Below the pieces are notes generated by a model that saw only the letters and a list, made by a program, of their open reading frames with translations, was not told the origin of the DNA and did no database searches. From the NCBI GenBank assembly GCA_050250255.1, contig JBFWOZ010000004.1:43557-107556 (forward strand): a stretch of DNA of 64,000 bases, given 5' to 3'. The translations under genes and the position numbers were made by a program. Source of the DNA: Bdellovibrionales bacterium (GTDB taxonomy: Bacteria > Bdellovibrionota > Bdellovibrionia > Bdellovibrionales > DASUEL01). Positions 39,640 to 52,268 of this stretch are shown one piece after another (position 1 is the first letter of the stretch; each line of letters begins with the position of its first letter).

Positions 39640-40170
39640 TTATTTCTGAACTTCAGGAGTTTTTGCAGTGTCGCCCACGCGAATCGCAATACCGAGATCC
39701 ACCGCTTGGCTTCGAATCGGCATCGAGTGAACCAACTTCTGTTGAAGCTTCAAGAAGATCGGCTCGCGAATGGCGAGGTCGTTATCTTGTAAGACACACT
39801 GACGAGCAATGCGCTTATCCACATTCAAAATGACTGGCGCTTTTAAGTTTGCAGTCATGAGAGTGGGATCTTCAGGAATCGTGATGATGCTGAAAGAACG
39901 AATGCGTTCGGTGTTTTTGATTTGTAAAAGCTCGAGTTCGTTTTTGGAGAGATTCACTTTGTAATCATCTGCAAACAGTTCGGGCTCGAGAACAGGAAAT
40001 GCGATATCTGGTTGATCACAGCTTTGCAACCAAGCAAAGATTTCATCATCAGGGTCATCAAGAAGCACGAATGTCTTCAGTTGATTGAAACCAAGCAAGC
40101 CCTCAGGAAAAGCAATTTTATCCTCTTCGCTGATAGTTACTGTTCCAAACCGCCCTGTTTTTATGAGCAT
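39640..40170 (-). CDS. fliW: Flagellar assembly factor / CsrA antagonist FliW
   Basis: T.RFG, FPEGLLGF, FAWLQS and TANLKAP; adjacent to csrA. Confidence 0.92.
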   Translation of the reverse strand: MLIKTGRFGTVTISEEDKIAFPEGLLGFNQLKTFVLLDDPDDEIFAWLQSCDQPDIAFPVLEPELFADDYKVNLSKNELELLQIKNTERIRSFSIITIPEDPTLMTANLKAPVILNVDKRIARQCVLQDNDLAIREPIFLKLQQKLVHSMPIRSQAVDLGIAIRVGDTAKTPEVQK

Positions 40171-40290: not shown

Positions 40291-40518
40291 TTAGGTTTTA
40301 AGGAGCTTGGCCACGCGTCGTGAACCCTCAGCAGTTGCTGCTACAGAAGCCTTATTTTGCTCCTGGATCGCGATATAAACCTCTTCACGATGAATTCTGG
40401 TGTCCTTAGGGGCTTGGATGCCAAGGCGTACTTGCTTACCTTTGATTTGAACAACGGTGATTTTGATATTGTCGTCGATGGCTATACTTTCGCCAAGCTT
40501 ACGGGTGAGCACTAACAT
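40291..40518 (-). CDS. csrA: Carbon storage regulator CsrA
   Basis: [14 protein letters not shown]...VRLGIQAP...IHREE with the C-terminal extension typical of FliW-partnered CsrA; start 40518. Confidence 0.95.
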
Positions 40519-43118: not shown

Positions 43119-43619
43119 TTAGATTTCCTTGCTCACAAATTTTCCAGGCGCCTGATTCGTCTCAAGCGTACCTTGTTTTTTATAAGTTGTATTTGAAGCT
43201 TGTTCCGGACTTGAATTCAGATTGTGTTTAATAATCTTTAAAGCATTCTGAGTCAGTCGTTCGTTTTGTTTATTATAATCCCGCACTCGAGTGAGAGTGA
43301 TATCAAGTGCGACTTGAACACCCCGAAGCTTAGCACCCTGATCTTTCGGGAGAATATCTACCAACTGAGTCAGATTTATTGTTTTTCCTGCTAAGTTCAA
43401 AGAAGAGAGAAAGGTCTCAACACGTTCTTGACGTATTTTCTCAAGAGCTTTTGTTTTGGTAATGAAAGCTTCTTTTGTTTGATTGATTTCCGTGATGCGA
43501 CCCAGGTCAAAAGAAATGAGAGCCGTCTTTTCTTCTTCAAGAGTATTGAAAAAGACATTATAGACAGAAACAAGTTCTTCCAAGATTTGAATTAAACTTT
43601 GATAAGCATCTTGTTTCAT
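43119..43619 (-). CDS. flgN: Flagellar chaperone FlgN
   Basis: Helical, E..AL, N..N..L and TY...G; lies between flgM and flgK. Confidence 0.75.
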   Translation of the reverse strand: MKQDAYQSLIQILEELVSVYNVFFNTLEEEKTALISFDLGRITEINQTKEAFITKTKALEKIRQERVETFLSSLNLAGKTINLTQLVDILPKDQGAKLRGVQVALDITLTRVRDYNKQNERLTQNALKIIKHNLNSSPEQASNTTYKKQGTLETNQAPGKFVSKEI

Positions 43620-43993: not shown

Positions 43994-44060
43994 AACATCT
44001 CCTATTTCCTCATTGTATCATATCGAGACATCGAGACAAAGCGGCTTATAAGCACTTGAC

Positions 44061-44744
44061 CTATGTCTTTGTTTCCATTGACCAAAAGATTCCTTTTGAT
44101 TCAGGGCTCAAGCTTCCCATCTTTTGGCCAGCTTCCACTTGGCCTCCTGTTCTTAAGTCTGCAGATTTCATGCCTTCAAAACGTAGTCGTGATGAAACCC
44201 CGTTGTCGTGATCTATGCGTAATTGAATAAAACCATCGCCCTCTTGCTCATAAGCGACTTTTCCTGCCCAAGGGGAAACCACGTCTTCTGCAGCTTTACC
44301 TGGAGACGTAGAAAGTCTTTCTAAGAACAAATTTGCGCCTTTGGCAGGAGCTAAACCAGCTGCTGGCGTAGTTCCCTGTTGCAATCTAAATTGTCCCTTG
44401 GATTCAAGAGGCATAGGCCCTACTGGCTTTGCCATCCCAGAAGAGTTCGAAAAATATTTTTCCATGATGTGACTGTAGATCATATCCGCAAGACCTACTC
44501 CACCACGCTCACCCCATTTTTCAACATAGTGATGATCCATTTGTTCGCGATAAATTCTTTCACCCTGACTTGTAGGTATGAGATCACTCTCTTGCACGGT
44601 ATTTCTCATTGCTTTGAGCATCTCTCTTAAGAATTGCTGCTCATACATCTGAGCCGCCTTCATCACCTTCTCATTTTTTCGAGGCTGAGTAACCTGAGAA
44701 GGATCGAGATTCAATTTTGGTTTTACATTATTGATGGACGACAT
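44061..44744 (-). CDS. flgJ: FlgJ rod-binding protein with a degenerate M23-like C-terminal domain
   Basis: AAQMYEQQF...MLKAMR.TV and GVGLADMIY; start MSSINN at 44744. Confidence 0.75.
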   Translation of the reverse strand: MSSINNVKPKLNLDPSQVTQPRKNEKVMKAAQMYEQQFLREMLKAMRNTVQESDLIPTSQGERIYREQMDHHYVEKWGERGGVGLADMIYSHIMEKYFSNSSGMAKPVGPMPLESKGQFRLQQGTTPAAGLAPAKGANLFLERLSTSPGKAAEDVVSPWAGKVAYEQEGDGFIQLRIDHDNGVSSRLRFEGMKSADLRTGGQVEAGQKMGSLSPESKGIFWSMETKT

Positions 44745-44965
44745 TTCGTACGTCCATCTTCTTGAAGAAAAAAGAAAGGGGAGTTGAGCCATCCAGTCCG
44801 TGCATCCTGCACTTCACTCCGCACAACGAGCTCTCAACCAATCCTTGGCCAAAGCTTTCATCATGCAACTGTTTCCTGCAAAAACAGTATTCGGTCGCCC
44901 ATCCATGGTTCGTGACCTTCGACTCACCCTCCCCCGGATCCCAACACTTCCATGTGTTGGTAACG
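44745..44965 (-). ncRNA. Candidate CsrB/RsmZ-like GGA-hairpin RNA between flgI and flgJ
   Basis: 11 GGA trinucleotides on the minus strand within 44753-44951, several in hairpin loops (CCAACAC-AUGGAA-GUGUUGG, GUGC-AGGAU-GCAC, CCA-AGGAU-UGG, CC-AUGGAU-GG). Confidence 0.55.
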
Positions 44966-45011
44966 TACACTTTAAGTCTAAATCTATTTTCATTAACTAC
45001 GAAAATCTTTT

Positions 45012-46034
45012 TCACAAAATTTCTAGCTCTCCCTGTAAGGCACCGGATGCTTTGATGTTTTGTAGAATCGTGATCAAGTCCTTCGGCGAGACACCGAGTG
45101 CGTTCATTGCACGGACTAGTTCACCTATACTCGCCTCGCCCTCGACTATAGCAATGCGATCACCCTTCTGGTCTTTACTTTTGTTACCATCTGGGCCGCC
45201 GACTTTTACAGTAAGATTGCCGTGACTGATAGCGACCTTCGACACTTTCACTCCGTCGCCGATGACAACCGTTCCAGTCTTCTCGTTGACGACAACTTTT
45301 GCTCTCTTATCAGGAACGACGTTGAGAGTTTCGATCGTGGCCATTAGCTCCACCGCGTTTCCTTCATAAGAGAAAGGAACAACCACATCAACCGTACCAC
45401 TATCTTTTGCTACAGCGTATTTCCCACCAAGATCGGTGTTGATCATTTTTGCAACACGCGCTGAAGTCGTAAAATCTGGTGAATGTAGTGTGAGTCGAAA
45501 CATTTTTTGGCTCGCAAAATCCACATCTAAATCTTTTTCGATAATCGCTCCGTTAGGAATTCTTCCTGCAGTCGTGTGAGCTTTTGCCTGACCCTCACCA
45601 CCACCGATTAATATATTCCCTTGAGCGACAGCATAAACCTGTTGGTTCGCGGCTTTTAGAGGCGTTTGAATGAGCGTTCCGCCCTCTAAGCTTGAGGCTT
45701 CACCAATGGAATGAACAGCGATATCTAATTTATTTCCTGATCGTGCAAAGGGAGGAAGACTTGCAGTTACCAAAACCGCGGCCACATTTTTGCTGGCAAC
45801 ATCTGTCCCTTCTAATTTAATTCCAACGGCATCAAGCATCCGAGAGAAACTTTTGTTCGTGAATTCCGCTTTTCCATCTCCGGTACCTTTCAGGCCCACA
45901 ACGAGACCATAACCGATGAGTTGGTTTTCTCTTACCCCACGGACATTGGCGATGTCTTTGATCCGAGCCGCTTGTGCTCTCAATGCCATCGCTACGAATA
46001 CGAGAATAATTTGTAAAACGATAAAGGCCTTCAC
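45012..46034 (-). CDS. flgI: Flagellar P-ring protein
   Basis: RIKDI..VRGVRENQLIGYGLVVGL.GTGD, NVAAV and GALQGEL. Confidence 0.97.
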   Translation of the reverse strand: MKAFIVLQIILVFVAMALRAQAARIKDIANVRGVRENQLIGYGLVVGLKGTGDGKAEFTNKSFSRMLDAVGIKLEGTDVASKNVAAVLVTASLPPFARSGNKLDIAVHSIGEASSLEGGTLIQTPLKAANQQVYAVAQGNILIGGGEGQAKAHTTAGRIPNGAIIEKDLDVDFASQKMFRLTLHSPDFTTSARVAKMINTDLGGKYAVAKDSGTVDVVVPFSYEGNAVELMATIETLNVVPDKRAKVVVNEKTGTVVIGDGVKVSKVAISHGNLTVKVGGPDGNKSKDQKGDRIAIVEGEASIGELVRAMNALGVSPKDLITILQNIKASGALQGELEIL

Positions 46035-46810
46035 TTGACCTCCTTTTTCATACTGACGATATCGAATCGTGAATCAAGAATGCGGGAAGATTGAACTGCA
46101 TCGTCTCTGATATCGCTGGGACGCACAATACCTGTTGCGATGACTTTATACTCTCGCTTGCCAATCATAAAAGTTTGGCTTCCTTTAAGTCGGTAACTTC
46201 CATCGCTTGATTGCTCGATGATACGGCTTGGAATTCTGGCCACATCAAATTGGCTCGCTTTTTCTTCGGCTTCTTCTTGTTTTTCAGCTGGATCCGCTTT
46301 CGCCGCCGCGCCCTTTGCTTCAGGAGCTTTCTTCTCTCCGTCTTTCGCTTCAGGAGCGCCTTCTGCAGGCTGTTGAGCAGCCAATGTTCTCTGACTCTTG
46401 CGGTTCTTTTCTAAAAGACTTTTTATGATTTCAACTTTTTTCTCTAATTGAGTTTTCGGTGAGCCCTCTAAATCAATGTTAACGATGTCACCCGTAAGGC
46501 GGTTGGTATTTTGAGAGAACAAATAAGCTGTTTGTCCTTCCATAGGCCATAAAGATCCCGCTCGGTCGTCGAGCATTCCTTCTTTTTCAAAAATTTCTTT
46601 ATTCACTCTTCGATAGAGCCGGCCGTTATCGTTCGCGTTCATGTTAGCATTTTCTGAAAACTTCGCTTTTCCTGACGAAGATTTATTTTGTGTCGCAGGC
46701 GCCTCAGAGCCACCCAAAAAAGATTTCATTTTCTTCCCGAGACTTCCACATCCCGTAAGAGCTAAAAAAAGGCTGAGAAAAGTTATTTGATTTATCCACT
46801 GTCTCATCAT
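46031..46810 (-). CDS. flgH: Flagellar L-ring lipoprotein (divergent)
   Basis: Lipobox LTGC, GSLW, GDIV.I and GIVRPSDI; lies between flgA and flgI. Confidence 0.8.
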   Translation of the reverse strand: MMRQWINQITFLSLFLALTGCGSLGKKMKSFLGGSEAPATQNKSSSGKAKFSENANMNANDNGRLYRRVNKEIFEKEGMLDDRAGSLWPMEGQTAYLFSQNTNRLTGDIVNIDLEGSPKTQLEKKVEIIKSLLEKNRKSQRTLAAQQPAEGAPEAKDGEKKAPEAKGAAAKADPAEKQEEAEEKASQFDVARIPSRIIEQSSDGSYRLKGSQTFMIGKREYKVIATGIVRPSDIRDDAVQSSRILDSRFDIVSMKKEVK

Positions 46811-47781
46811 TTTACCTCAACGACCCCTTCAGCTACGACAACACCCACAACAATCTTTTTGGTCTCTGGGTTTTGAACTTTTACTAAGTCTCCAATGTAT
46901 CCTTCATCTTGAGCCACACCCTTCATGCTAACAGACCAAACTTCATGCCCTGAAGTCAGCACGACGTTTTGTCCACGATTAAGAGCGGGTTGTCTTTTCA
47001 CTTGAGACTTCAAAAGAACTTGATTCGCTCGAACGGGTACCTTCAATACTAAGCCTACGATTTCTTTTTCGTCGGGGCTCGCATCAAGGGCAAAAGTCAC
47101 ATCGCGCTTACCCATGATAAAATCGTTTGGCTGAATACGGATTCCCGGTTGCAAATTATGAGAGATCACAGGAACCAATTTTTTCACCGACACTCTGCCA
47201 GAAAGCCAATAAACTTTTTTATTTTGATGAGGTTCAAAAATCTCAACCGCGATTTGGAAAGTCCCTCTAAGCCGCGAATAATCCGCACGAATTTCCCAGC
47301 GTCCCTTGGGAGAAAGTTCATCCATTGTAGGAACACGTAGCTCCATGATTTCCACATCACAGCCGCTACAAGTTTCAGAAATACCGCTGACAAGCTTTTC
47401 TTTGACTTCAATTTCGGTAATTGATTGTCCCTTGCCGATAATAGTTATGGTTGCAGGAATTTGTAATTTCAGAGGAGCTTTTTCACTCGTCTCTGCCGAC
47501 AGACCCACGCCTCGCATTCCCGATCTCAACGCTTCGGCAATACTGCTATTAGAAAACTGGCGCGACTCACCATAGGCAGGAGCATCTCCAAGGGGAACTG
47601 AACTTAATTGCTTTTTCTGCATCTCGCTCATTCCGTTAATTTCTGCCACATCGCCTAAAAATAAAGTTGGACCATTCACTCGTGATACTTCACGAATGAT
47701 GATGCTGATCTGGCGAGCTTCAGCAGCGGTTGCCATGAGATAAAAAGCTAAAATGAGGAGGGGTTGAATCGCTGTTTTCAT
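46807..47781 (-). CDS. flgA: P-ring assembly chaperone FlgA
   Basis: SAF-like region and G.A..G..GD.VKV.N..TKKIV.G. Confidence 0.85.
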   Translation of the reverse strand: MKTAIQPLLILAFYLMATAAEARQISIIIREVSRVNGPTLFLGDVAEINGMSEMQKKQLSSVPLGDAPAYGESRQFSNSSIAEALRSGMRGVGLSAETSEKAPLKLQIPATITIIGKGQSITEIEVKEKLVSGISETCSGCDVEIMELRVPTMDELSPKGRWEIRADYSRLRGTFQIAVEIFEPHQNKKVYWLSGRVSVKKLVPVISHNLQPGIRIQPNDFIMGKRDVTFALDASPDEKEIVGLVLKVPVRANQVLLKSQVKRQPALNRGQNVVLTSGHEVWSVSMKGVAQDEGYIGDLVKVQNPETKKIVVGVVVAEGVVEVK

Positions 47782-48566
47782 TATCTCAAATTATTAATGG
47801 TTTGTAACATCTGGTCTGCCGCCTGCATCGTCTTAGAGTTCGTCTCGTAAGCTCGTTGCGCCGTAATCATATTGACCATTTCTTCCACGATATTGACGTT
47901 GCTGGTTTCCAGCTGACCTTGAGCCAACGCACCCAATCCGTTTTCACCGGGGTTACCCTGTAAAGGAGCTCCACTCGCATTGCTCGGCATATACAAATTT
48001 TTACCTACGGATTTGAGGCCCGCTGGGTTTACAAAATTCACAATTTGAATTTGTCCCAAAGTTTGAGGTTCTGGATTTTCCGCCACAATCACGGTCACCG
48101 TGCCCGAAGCACCGATATCAATACCACTTGTTCCTGGAGGAATAGTGATTTCTGGCTGAAGAACGTTTCCGTTTTTATCCATCAATCTACCGTTAGAATC
48201 TTTCTTGAAAGATCCATCACGTGTGTAGGCAATTTGTCCAGAGGGCAACTGCACTGGAAAAAATCCATTCCCTTCAATTTGAAGATCGAGAGCATTTTTT
48301 GTCATAGCCGCAGAGCCCATTTCAAAATCTTTAGTCACAGAAGCCGTACGCACCCCTAAACCCACTTGTACGCCAGTCGGCGATACGGAATTGGCCCCAG
48401 TTTGTGCGCCCGGTTCTTTCACTGTTTGATAAAGAAGATCTTCAAATTCGGCTCTGGATTTTTTAAAGCCCGAGGTGCTCACATTCGCGATGTTGTGAGA
48501 AATCACATCCATATTTGTTTGCTGTGCCTGCATTCCTGTGGCCGCTGTATTAAGTGCCTTAATCAT
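47781..48566 (-). CDS. flgG: Distal rod protein FlgG
   Basis: AATGMQAQQ...NIANV.T.GFK, FEDLLYQ, YTRDG and LETSNVN.VEEMV. Confidence 0.97.
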   Translation of the reverse strand: MIKALNTAATGMQAQQTNMDVISHNIANVSTSGFKKSRAEFEDLLYQTVKEPGAQTGANSVSPTGVQVGLGVRTASVTKDFEMGSAAMTKNALDLQIEGNGFFPVQLPSGQIAYTRDGSFKKDSNGRLMDKNGNVLQPEITIPPGTSGIDIGASGTVTVIVAENPEPQTLGQIQIVNFVNPAGLKSVGKNLYMPSNASGAPLQGNPGENGLGALAQGQLETSNVNIVEEMVNMITAQRAYETNSKTMQAADQMLQTINNLR

Positions 48567-50603: not shown

Positions 50604-52268
50604 TTATTTGTAGGTATTTGTATTATTACTTAATTCATCAGCTAGGCTTTTAAGATCCAACATTTTACCGTTTTTCACCTTACTATTCAAAGGCGCTTCA
50701 GTTCGCGCAGCTGCAACTAATAACTGTTCTAACTTTGCTGGTGAAATCGTAAATCCTTTTTTCTTTGCAAAGCTATACGCCAGTCCCGCAGCTCCCGCCA
50801 CTAGAGGAGAAGACATAGAGGTTCCCTGACTGCGCTCATACTTGTTGTCGGGATAGGTAGAAAGCATACCAGATGTTCCCGGAGGGTGAGAGCCCGGCGC
50901 AGCTATTTCCACAAGACTTGTACTGTAATTTGTAAAAGCACTATGCTCATATTGCCCGCTCGTAGGACTGTCCTCTGTGGACGCAACAGTCACAAGCCCA
51001 TTGATCTCTGCTGAAAAAGAAGCTGGAGTTTGGAAGATCTTATTCGTTCCCGTATCACAACTGTTGTATGCATCTGCTTCTAAATTCGAAATTTCTCGCC
51101 CGTCATTCCCCGCGGCGGTCACGACAAATACACCTTTACTCACAGCATATTGAATGGCATCGCGTGTATTCACATCACGAGTACAACCACCGACACTTAA
51201 ATTAATAACGTTCGCTCCGTTATCAGCTGCATAACGAATGGCATTGTTTAAACGTGACGTTTGACCCTCAGGAGAATCACCAAACACATTCAGAGCCATG
51301 ATCTTTGATCGAAGCCCCATCACACCTGTGCCACCCAACATATTATTCCAACGAGCAGCTGCTAAACCGGCCACATGAGTACCATGCTCAGATCCGTCAA
51401 TTGCCTCTTCATCGCCATCTTCGTCTGCATCATACATCCACTGCTGAGGGCGAGGATCACCAGTTTGAGAAACGAAGTTCCAACCTTCATAATCGTCAAC
51501 ATAACCGTTACAGTCGTCATCGCGAGCATTATCGGGAATCTCTTTTGTATTCACCCATGTGTTGCTGGATAAGTCTTGATGATCAAGATCCACACCGCTA
51601 TCGATAATCGCAATGACTACATCAGAATTAATACCGGTCGAAGAGTCATAAAAAGTATCGTAGGCAAGAGACGAGCGAATCGCTGTATGATGTGTTTGGT
51701 CGTTAAAACGTGGATCGTTGGTGGTTGCCAATGTGTGATAAGTGATGCCTTCTGCTAAAGAGACAAGACACTCATCGTTTTCTGCGATTTGATTGAGTTC
51801 TGTTAAAGAAAAAGCTTGTTCCGTAGAGTAGTCATAATATTTTATTCGTTTCGCGGCCCGTGGATTTTCACAGTTTTCAATGACCGCTGCTACGAGAGGA
51901 GTTCCTTCAGGGATGATCACGTCTTCTTGCTGTACCCATTCGGATAGTGCTTGCTGAGGTTTCATTGTTAAATCAAAAATTCGCTTTGGAGAAAGTGCGC
52001 CCCCTGCAGTGCGACCTTGATAATAAACTTTTGAACCGCGTTCCCAACGAAGCGTCTCCACCAGAGCGTTGGCTTCTAGAATTTTTGTTGTTGAGGTGGC
52101 CTGAGTTGTTGCGGGATTAGGAACACATTGAAGAGCCGCTGGCTCTTTCAACTTTTGAGAGATGAGTTTGCCAAAGATATCAGAGCCACATCCACTTAAT
52201 AGAAATGGAAGCATTAATAGGACGGCCACTTCGGCGTGTCTCATTCTGATACAAGTTCGATTGTTCAA
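50604..52268 (-). CDS. S8 subtilisin-like serine protease, lipoprotein
   Basis: Lipobox LSGC; IDSG, HGTHVAG, AAGN and GTSMSSP. Confidence 0.92.
   Translation of the reverse strand: MNNRTCIRMRHAEVAVLLMLPFLLSGCGSDIFGKLISQKLKEPAALQCVPNPATTQATSTTKILEANALVETLRWERGSKVYYQGRTAGGALSPKRIFDLTMKPQQALSEWVQQEDVIIPEGTPLVAAVIENCENPRAAKRIKYYDYSTEQAFSLTELNQIAENDECLVSLAEGITYHTLATTNDPRFNDQTHHTAIRSSLAYDTFYDSSTGINSDVVIAIIDSGVDLDHQDLSSNTWVNTKEIPDNARDDDCNGYVDDYEGWNFVSQTGDPRPQQWMYDADEDGDEEAIDGSEHGTHVAGLAAARWNNMLGGTGVMGLRSKIMALNVFGDSPEGQTSRLNNAIRYAADNGANVINLSVGGCTRDVNTRDAIQYAVSKGVFVVTAAGNDGREISNLEADAYNSCDTGTNKIFQTPASFSAEINGLVTVASTEDSPTSGQYEHSAFTNYSTSLVEIAAPGSHPPGTSGMLSTYPDNKYERSQGTSMSSPLVAGAAGLAYSFAKKKGFTISPAKLEQLLVAAARTEAPLNSKVKNGKMLDLKSLADELSNNTNTYK

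Follow-up and report, generated by a model that had tools for sequence, protein, structure and literature searches.

A conserved structured RNA between flgI and flgJ in Bdellovibrionales as a candidate CsrA sponge working beside FliW

We analyzed a 64,000-nt stretch of a Bdellovibrionales genome (GenBank assembly GCA_050250255.1, contig JBFWOZ010000004.1, forward-strand positions 43,557 to 107,556), referred to here as the window, which contains a flagellar gene cluster on its minus strand. The genes flgG (47781-48566), flgA (46807-47781), flgH (46031-46810) and flgI abut or overlap, and a gap of 267 nt then separates the flgI stop codon from the flgJ start codon (the ATG at 44744, as used here), an arrangement that agrees with the original prediction of overlapping genes followed by roughly 270 nt of intergenic DNA. 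The same prediction placed csrA and fliW 4 kb downstream; both pass NCBIfam cut-offs and lie ~4.2 kb from the gap in the same cluster (Table 1). Read from its translation, CsrA has R6, R31, R44 and N55 together with a C-terminal extension; among PDB structures, 5dmb_D matches it best (residues 2-74). For the FlgJ-like protein, the N-terminal rod-binding part alone matches FlgJ models and the C-terminal half looks unrelated. The nearest relatives of the window's flgI belong to the Bdellovibrionales.

Table 1 Predicted elements of the flgI-flgJ gap and the neighboring genes, in coordinates of the window
Feature	Position	Strand	Details
flgI	45012-46034	-	Upstream neighbor of the RNA; NCBIfam PRK05303, 382.5 bits, over cut-off
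flgJ-like gene	44061-44744	-	Downstream neighbor; TIGR02541, E = 2.6e-12, N-terminal part, below cut-off
csrA	40291-40518	-	75 aa; NCBIfam over cut-offs; predicted ligand of the RNA
fliW	39640-40170	-	NCBIfam PRK13285, 133 bits versus cut-off of 130; PF02623, E = 3.9e-39; CsrA protein antagonist
Candidate CsrA-sponge sRNA, ~200 nt	44765-44969	-	Covariance model 145.6 bits; ends inferred from ortholog APsRNA1
Predicted sigma70-type promoter	44975-45003	-	-35-like TTCGTA (45003-44998), 17-nt spacer, -10-like TAGACT (44980-44975)
H1, AUGGAA hexaloop, 5' of the long-range stem	44941-44960	-	GGA unpaired, p = 1.0; two-sided changes at 7/9 pairs
P0 5' arm, G-rich half of the long-range closing stem	44919-44934	-	Pairs with 44778-44792, p 0.93-1.0 except at a 2-nt bulge
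H2, short hairpin, AUGGAU loop	44899-44908	-	GGA unpaired, p 0.98-1.0; GGA in 44/44 rows
H3, conserved hairpin, loop ending in GCAG	44869-44887	-	GGA mostly paired, P(unpaired) 0.48/0.06/0.03
H4, AAGGAU/AGGAU loop at the tip of a long arm	44836-44850	-	GGA unpaired, p = 1.0; GGA in 39/44 rows; two-sided changes at 5/5 pairs
H5, AGGAU pentaloop	44800-44812	-	GGA unpaired, p = 1.0; GGA in 43/44 rows
P0 3' arm (C-rich, 44792-44778) and U-tract (44777-44765)	44765-44792	-	Predicted intrinsic terminator; conserved in relatives

The minus strand of the gap carries 11 GGA motifs (44951 to 44755) compared with two on the plus strand. These counts match the original prediction exactly, but the number itself does not exceed expectation, as dinucleotide shuffles contained 8.2 on average (p = 0.12), and the bare GGA count was therefore dropped as evidence. 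For the ANGGA form the comparison was 5 versus 2.3 in dinucleotide shuffles (p = 0.06), and 11 GGA were reached in 101 of 615,088 overlapping 200-nt segments of the genome. Four GGA lie inside hairpin loops, compared with a shuffle mean of 0.55 (matched by 1 of 500 shuffles), and the folding energy of the region had a z-score of -3.67 (0 of 200 shuffles). The hairpins in question are the four that had been named from the letters alone (H1, H2, H4 and H5), each recovered in place on folding the minus strand with its GGA unpaired at a probability of 0.98-1.0, and the U-rich tract noticed at the same time is also present. Of the 11 motifs, six are incidental and a further one, at 44876, is conserved and mostly base-paired.

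The two arms of the long-range stem, P0, pair around H2 to H5, giving the terminator-like stem a multibranch 'loop' of ~140 nt; the loops of H2, H4 and H5 are enclosed by it and H1 stands outside. We predict that transcription starts at 44969, 43 nt past the flgI stop codon, because the mapped start of an ortholog described below is also 43 nt past the stop codon of its flgI and a -10-like hexamer is placed accordingly in the window; the hexamer also falls in the -10 column of the relatives. A consensus scanner for promoters and terminators reported neither element on the minus strand here, with a terminator rule that covers loops of 3-8 nt only. The covariance model, whose training set includes the window's own sequence and hence the RNA scored in Table 1, matches the genome once, with the next best hit (12.4 bits) giving no sign of a paralog.

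The flgI-flgJ gap holds a conserved, structured, non-coding sRNA gene. We aligned 44 of 63 Bdellovibrionales loci with MAFFT, without fitting to the model, leaving out 19 loci that were duplicates (n = 4), truncated (n = 3), unparsed by the anchors (n = 7) or set aside by choice (n = 5, one near-duplicate and four divergent). In this alignment 86.6% of cells pair, compared with 78.6% after shuffling and 39-45% after sliding, the shuffles ignoring relatedness. Changes on both sides of a pair occur at 24 of 42 pairs in the unfitted alignment and at 36 of 42 in the model-fitted one (relatedness again ignored), and in the P0 stem they occur at 8 of 14 pairs in the unfitted alignment, with 91.5% of its cells paired. 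The H1 GGA is kept in 44 of 44 rows, and its commonest form, ACAUGGAUGU, is found in 21; because rows were chosen by anchors, the conservation of H1 and H3 in this set arises partly by selection. At the second pair of H5, U-A (30 of 44 rows) alternates with C-G (12 of 44).

H3 is a different kind of element. With its GGA mostly paired in the folding model, it is not a canonical CsrA site as modeled, and its loop CAG is present in 44 of 44 aligned rows, which were anchored on CAG. In divergent members with a retained GAGCAG loop, both strands of the stem have changed, and two of these members (L051 and L056) lose the GGA. In one divergent lineage, that of L051, L056, L057 and L058, the H1 GGA is lost, two or three sites are kept and H3 is retained. 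As a separate observation, the GCAG-ending loop and covarying stem of H3 persist in these four loci even where the GGA is lost or buried.

An open frame of 95 aa (44728-45015) spans the gap in the window, and we considered whether it might be a real gene in which the RNA motifs are incidental. Across the core, 18 of the 44 rows keep this frame open and the other 26 have it closed, and the spacing from H1 to H5 modulo 3 is spread over 11, 16 and 17 rows (one of them, L005, mis-anchored), so the reading frame is not kept. The ORF has no NCBIfam match either, and substitutions in the RNA region keep base pairs. The coding interpretation is largely refuted by these sequence comparisons, and we give it almost no weight. 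Conservation of this ORF, or loss of the GGA loops among relatives, had been put forward as grounds for giving up the original prediction; the ORF is not conserved, the GGA loops are kept and their stems covary.

Applied downstream of flgI, the covariance model matched all 63 Bdellovibrionales loci, including the 19 outside the alignment, the weakest being L028 at 26 bits. Among 56 distinct full-length matches, 32 have four GGA loops, 21 have three and 3 have two. Searches of whole genomes of the order found the RNA in 48 of 61; the 13 without a match comprise nine in which flgI was not found, three with a flgI fragment only and G011, the genome of locus L028. All 48 RNA-bearing genomes encode csrA and 46 encode fliW, the two exceptions having csrA at a contig end. 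No match was obtained in 37 flgI loci of Nitrospirales/Desulfobacterales type (L064-L100), or in 120 sampled genomes from other orders of the phylum under strict filters that also missed G022, a genome in which the search within the order had found the RNA. Four small genomes (G004, G009, G018 and G020; L138-L141) keep csrA, with fliW beside it in three; neither flgI nor the RNA was found in them, and the model had no match near csrA (the G018 stretch stops at a contig end). The presence of the RNA thus follows the flagellar locus more closely than it does csrA. Because kin are not independent, all of these counts overstate the support.

Judged from sequence and position, the window RNA is an ortholog of APsRNA1 of Bdellovibrio bacteriovorus HD100, a 207-nt transcript (499,375-499,581, plus strand) in the accessible part of Karunker et al. 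2013 (PMC3627812). APsRNA1 lies between flgI (498,325-499,332) and flgJ (499,642-500,349) in Table S1 of that report, and it shares with the window RNA its place, its relative strand, a similar size and the order of motifs. Its printed sequence is, by eye, the stretch of locus L029 that starts 43 nt past the flgI stop codon and ends in the U-tract, and L029 scores 154.5 bits against the model. Expression values in the same source, with attack- and growth-phase columns assigned from the flagellin and rpoD rows, are 50,451 and 3,181 RPKM for APsRNA1, 15 and 9 for flgI, 7.7 and 41.5 for flgJ and 92 and 1,344 for flgM. APsRNA1 is a discrete transcript, since the flanking flgI and flgJ are near background level, and the report marks it with its own mapped start and no FliA promoter. 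A 175-codon gene at the fliW position, probably fliW judging by position and size, has 41 and 3,077 RPKM, and the five main flagellin mRNAs sum to ~15,100 RPKM in attack phase (PMC3627812).

The 2013 account, as far as it was accessible, gives APsRNA1 no function, suggests that it acts by base pairing and reports no homologs outside B. bacteriovorus; csrA does not appear in the main text. The order-wide conservation, covarying fold and link to CsrA are new relative to that study. The name APsRNA1 occurred in this single paper of the literature searched, and no paper tying a Bdellovibrio sRNA to CsrA was found in a search with most subscription papers and bioRxiv supplements outside its reach. 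We found the L029 stretch in 14 RNA sequencing runs, and the four examined are flat-depth contigs, which cannot show ends or level. By eye, the massively expressed merRNA in Fig. S1 of PMC3627812 also contains several GGA motifs.

The surroundings of the start site vary among relatives. In 14 of 51 upstream regions, no more than 30 nt separate H1 from the flgI stop codon, and there the promoter is, by eye, apparently inside the last flgI codons. The loci with a promoter seemingly embedded in the 3' end of flgI are L019, L020, L021, L022, L024, L027, L035, L039, L044, L046, L049, L050, L060 and L062, and in these the flgI stop codon seems to form part of a -10-like hexamer. Of the 51 upstream regions, 14 have a palindrome, TGTYTYR-N3-YGARACA, over the -35 region, compared with 0 for the reversed control; it is not recognizable in the upstream region of the window's own RNA. 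The palindrome looks like a regulator site, and no literature on it was found, most subscription papers being outside the search. Genome-wide, TGTYTCR-N3-YGARACA has 32 matches at one mismatch, 22 of them outside long ORFs, a portion that makes up only 17% of the genome, and five genomes have the palindrome in excess of the reversed control. Two copies lie in the window, at 44014-44030 (upstream of flgM) and at 52237-52253; the palindrome precedes flgM and a pilin-like gene, and partial copies are visible by eye upstream of two flagellins.

The RNA resembles the Csr/Rsm sRNAs of Gammaproteobacteria (CsrB, CsrC, RsmX, RsmY and RsmZ/PrrB), which are likewise non-coding with several A(N)GGA loops; they are also abundant and have an intrinsic terminator, features published for APsRNA1 and predicted for the window RNA. 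Differences are that the host has FliW as well as a long-tailed CsrA with N55, that the gene lies inside the flagellar cluster near csrA, and that the predicted terminator stem is long-range and encloses the sites. Rfam gave 0 matches at gathering score in the window, and no hit to CsrB, CsrC, RsmX, RsmY or RsmZ appeared at E values up to 10 in 12 loci. The consensus of a GacA/UvrY-type box was absent from all 51 upstream regions at two mismatches and from the vicinity of the RNA at three. The RNA probably works like CsrB/RsmZ while standing outside those Rfam families.

The cluster is also comparable to the CsrA-FliW-flagellin switch of Bacillus subtilis, Campylobacter jejuni and Geobacter sulfurreducens, in which fliW lies beside csrA, CsrA has N55 and a C-terminal extension, and flagellin leaders carry GGA hairpins; the Geobacter sulfurreducens operon flgJMNKL-csrA-fliW even has the gene order of the window. 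Such systems have been described without characterized sRNA antagonists, whereas the window's cluster holds a dedicated multi-site RNA. For Geobacter, the accessible part of a 2026 paper states that there is no characterized CsrB/C-type sRNA, and the three sRNA candidates in that genus are predictions at other loci. One review treats the FliW and sRNA mechanisms as mutually exclusive (PMC7366521), and a 2020 review, in its accessible part, describes joint action of FliW and an sRNA on CsrA as still to be determined in any species (PMC7652899).

We regard the RNA as probably a CsrA sponge that works beside FliW, a reading built on the forms of its loops, the repression of hag by CsrA and the presence of GGA sites near flagellins. 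High-affinity CsrA sites have the form A(N)GGAX on a stem (PMC4005645, accessible part), which the window's loops match, and H1 follows the SELEX consensus RUACARGGAUGU (PMC7652899, accessible part). CsrA of B. bacteriovorus represses a hag reporter in the accessible part of PMC13443453, which also cites a transposon screen that implicated csrA in predation; a mutant form of the reporter was inhibited as well, so the GGA dependence of this CsrA may be loose. Five of six flagellin upstream regions in the present genome have, by eye, a GGA with short hairpin-forming flanks ahead of the ribosome site. The abundance of APsRNA1, far above the flagellin mRNAs, fits titration. As a predicted function, the operon-embedded sponge beside FliW that was originally proposed is thus well supported by conserved GGA loops, covarying stems, co-occurrence with csrA and fliW and an abundant discrete ortholog. 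Weighing against it are the loss of the H1 GGA in one lineage, the four genomes with csrA in which neither flgI nor the RNA was found, the lack of a Csr/Rsm match in Rfam and the possibly loose GGA dependence of B. bacteriovorus CsrA.

Under this proposal, the sigma70-type promoter would start the RNA ~43 nt past flgI, and its G-rich 5' and C-rich 3' arms, paired so as to enclose the clustered hairpins, would together with the U-tract end transcription. The four loops could bind about two CsrA dimers, and titration of CsrA would free leaders with GGA hairpins, such as those of the flagellins, during the swimming phase. The two antagonists would act at different times, FliW running an assembly checkpoint in the growth phase, when its mRNA is high, and the RNA acting in the swimming phase, when its own level is high; this timing is drawn from a single mRNA data set.

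A multi-site translational switch for flgJ-M-N-K-L had been offered as the other option, and it is unsupported in this order. The terminator-like stem and U-tract intervene before flgJ, no GGA hairpin lies at a fixed distance over the flgJ ribosome site, the distance from the RNA to flgJ ranges from a few to hundreds of nucleotides among relatives, and the flgJ level in HD100 is thousands of times below that of the RNA. The window RNA differs from a hag-type operator, which has two GGA stem-loops in a 5' leader, in its four loops, its terminator and the lack of a fixed tie to a start codon.

A related possibility is that the element is a CsrA-sensing attenuator, acting in cis as the leader of flgJ-M-N-K-L-csrA-fliW, with CsrA occupancy setting read-through and the abundant RNA as a terminated by-product. 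The enclosure of CsrA sites by the terminator stem would suit this mechanism, as would flgJ start codons within ~10 nt past the U-tract in L004, L016, L020, L047 and L051, and a leader with GGA hairpins occurs at the same position in a sister class. In the accessible HD100 data, moreover, flgJ amounts to ~0.015% of the RNA in attack phase and to a higher share, 1.3%, in growth phase (18 and 29 reads). However, the closing stem forms at p 0.93-1.0 with or without all five sites forced open, a result of equilibrium folding only, and no antiterminator or alternative fold appeared when sought by the same approach. Both the variable distance to flgJ and the level of flgM, far above that of flgJ in HD100 and with its own promoter-like site in the window, count against a leader role, and we judge attenuation improbable.

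It is likewise unlikely, in our assessment, that the RNA binds CsrA while having another main job, as an RNP scaffold or a trans-acting sRNA whose H3 loop binds a second factor or target and for which CsrA is a stabilizer or chaperone. The invariant CAG of the H3 loop and the pairing of the H3 GGA would fit such a role, as would retention of that loop in the divergent lineage matched by the model only, in which H1 loses its GGA; base-pairing sRNAs bound by CsrA also exist (McaS, GadY and SR1). Against it, the conserved unpaired positions are mostly the GGA loops, the alignment contains no other long conserved single-stranded seed, and an abundance far above that of the flagellin mRNAs fits titration.

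For a candidate CsrA sponge located between flgI and flgJ, the corresponding gap in other classes bears on its origin. In the sister class represented by G067 (one family, f20; L142-L171), the gap is mostly ~80-140 nt and contains a -10-like hexamer and a short leader, with AGGA hairpins 40-150 nt past the flgI stop codon. Under a strict four-pair rule, two GGA hairpins are present in 14 of 30 loci, a single one in 11 and none in 5, compared with 0.12 per shuffle, and the layout is that of a hag-type operator. In 17 of 30 loci the last hairpin covers the ribosome site, 2-9 nt ahead of where the next long ORF starts, a signal that is partly the ribosome site itself. By eye, the upstream loop is similar to H4 and the downstream one to H5. 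These features make the sister-class flgJ leader a candidate for a translational operator bound by CsrA. Among the loci listed for the class of G064, flgJ begins at or just past the flgI stop codon.

Because the same gap holds a candidate cis operator of flgJ in one class and a terminated multi-site RNA in another, the sponge may have evolved from the flgJ leader. Convergence on the CsrA motif is a possible alternative to such an origin.

A broader reading joins these points, and we offer it tentatively, as a possibility that we hold to be doubtful in its full form. Bdellovibrionales would be the first case of a dedicated sRNA sponge for CsrA alongside FliW. The sRNA would have arisen independently of CsrB/Rsm and in place, from a CsrA-binding flgJ 5' leader that gained hairpins and a long-range terminator; it would succeed FliW in attack phase under the control of the conserved palindrome at its promoter, and a second factor would be recruited by the invariant loop of H3. 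A sponge role, if correct, would give the orphan sRNA APsRNA1 a function, would add a layer of post-transcriptional control to the attack/growth switch of a predator that is being studied as a living antibiotic, and would offer a visible route from mRNA operator to free sponge. Joint action of FliW and an sRNA on CsrA becomes directly testable in B. bacteriovorus, where the mapped ortholog ranks among the most abundant attack-phase RNAs.

Finally, a scan of the window's genome for clusters of GGA hairpins found no second sponge and returned an inverted-repeat element and one mRNA leader. The element (G000:C28:11862-12070) consists of two tandem inverted-repeat units, each with GGAUG hairpins, between convergent-side genes and downstream of an SMC-like ORF, and partial copies are present on contigs C9 and C16. 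The leader (G000:C67:5225-5293) belongs to a gene of 259 aa and has three consecutive GGA hairpins ahead of the start codon, making it a likely CsrA target.
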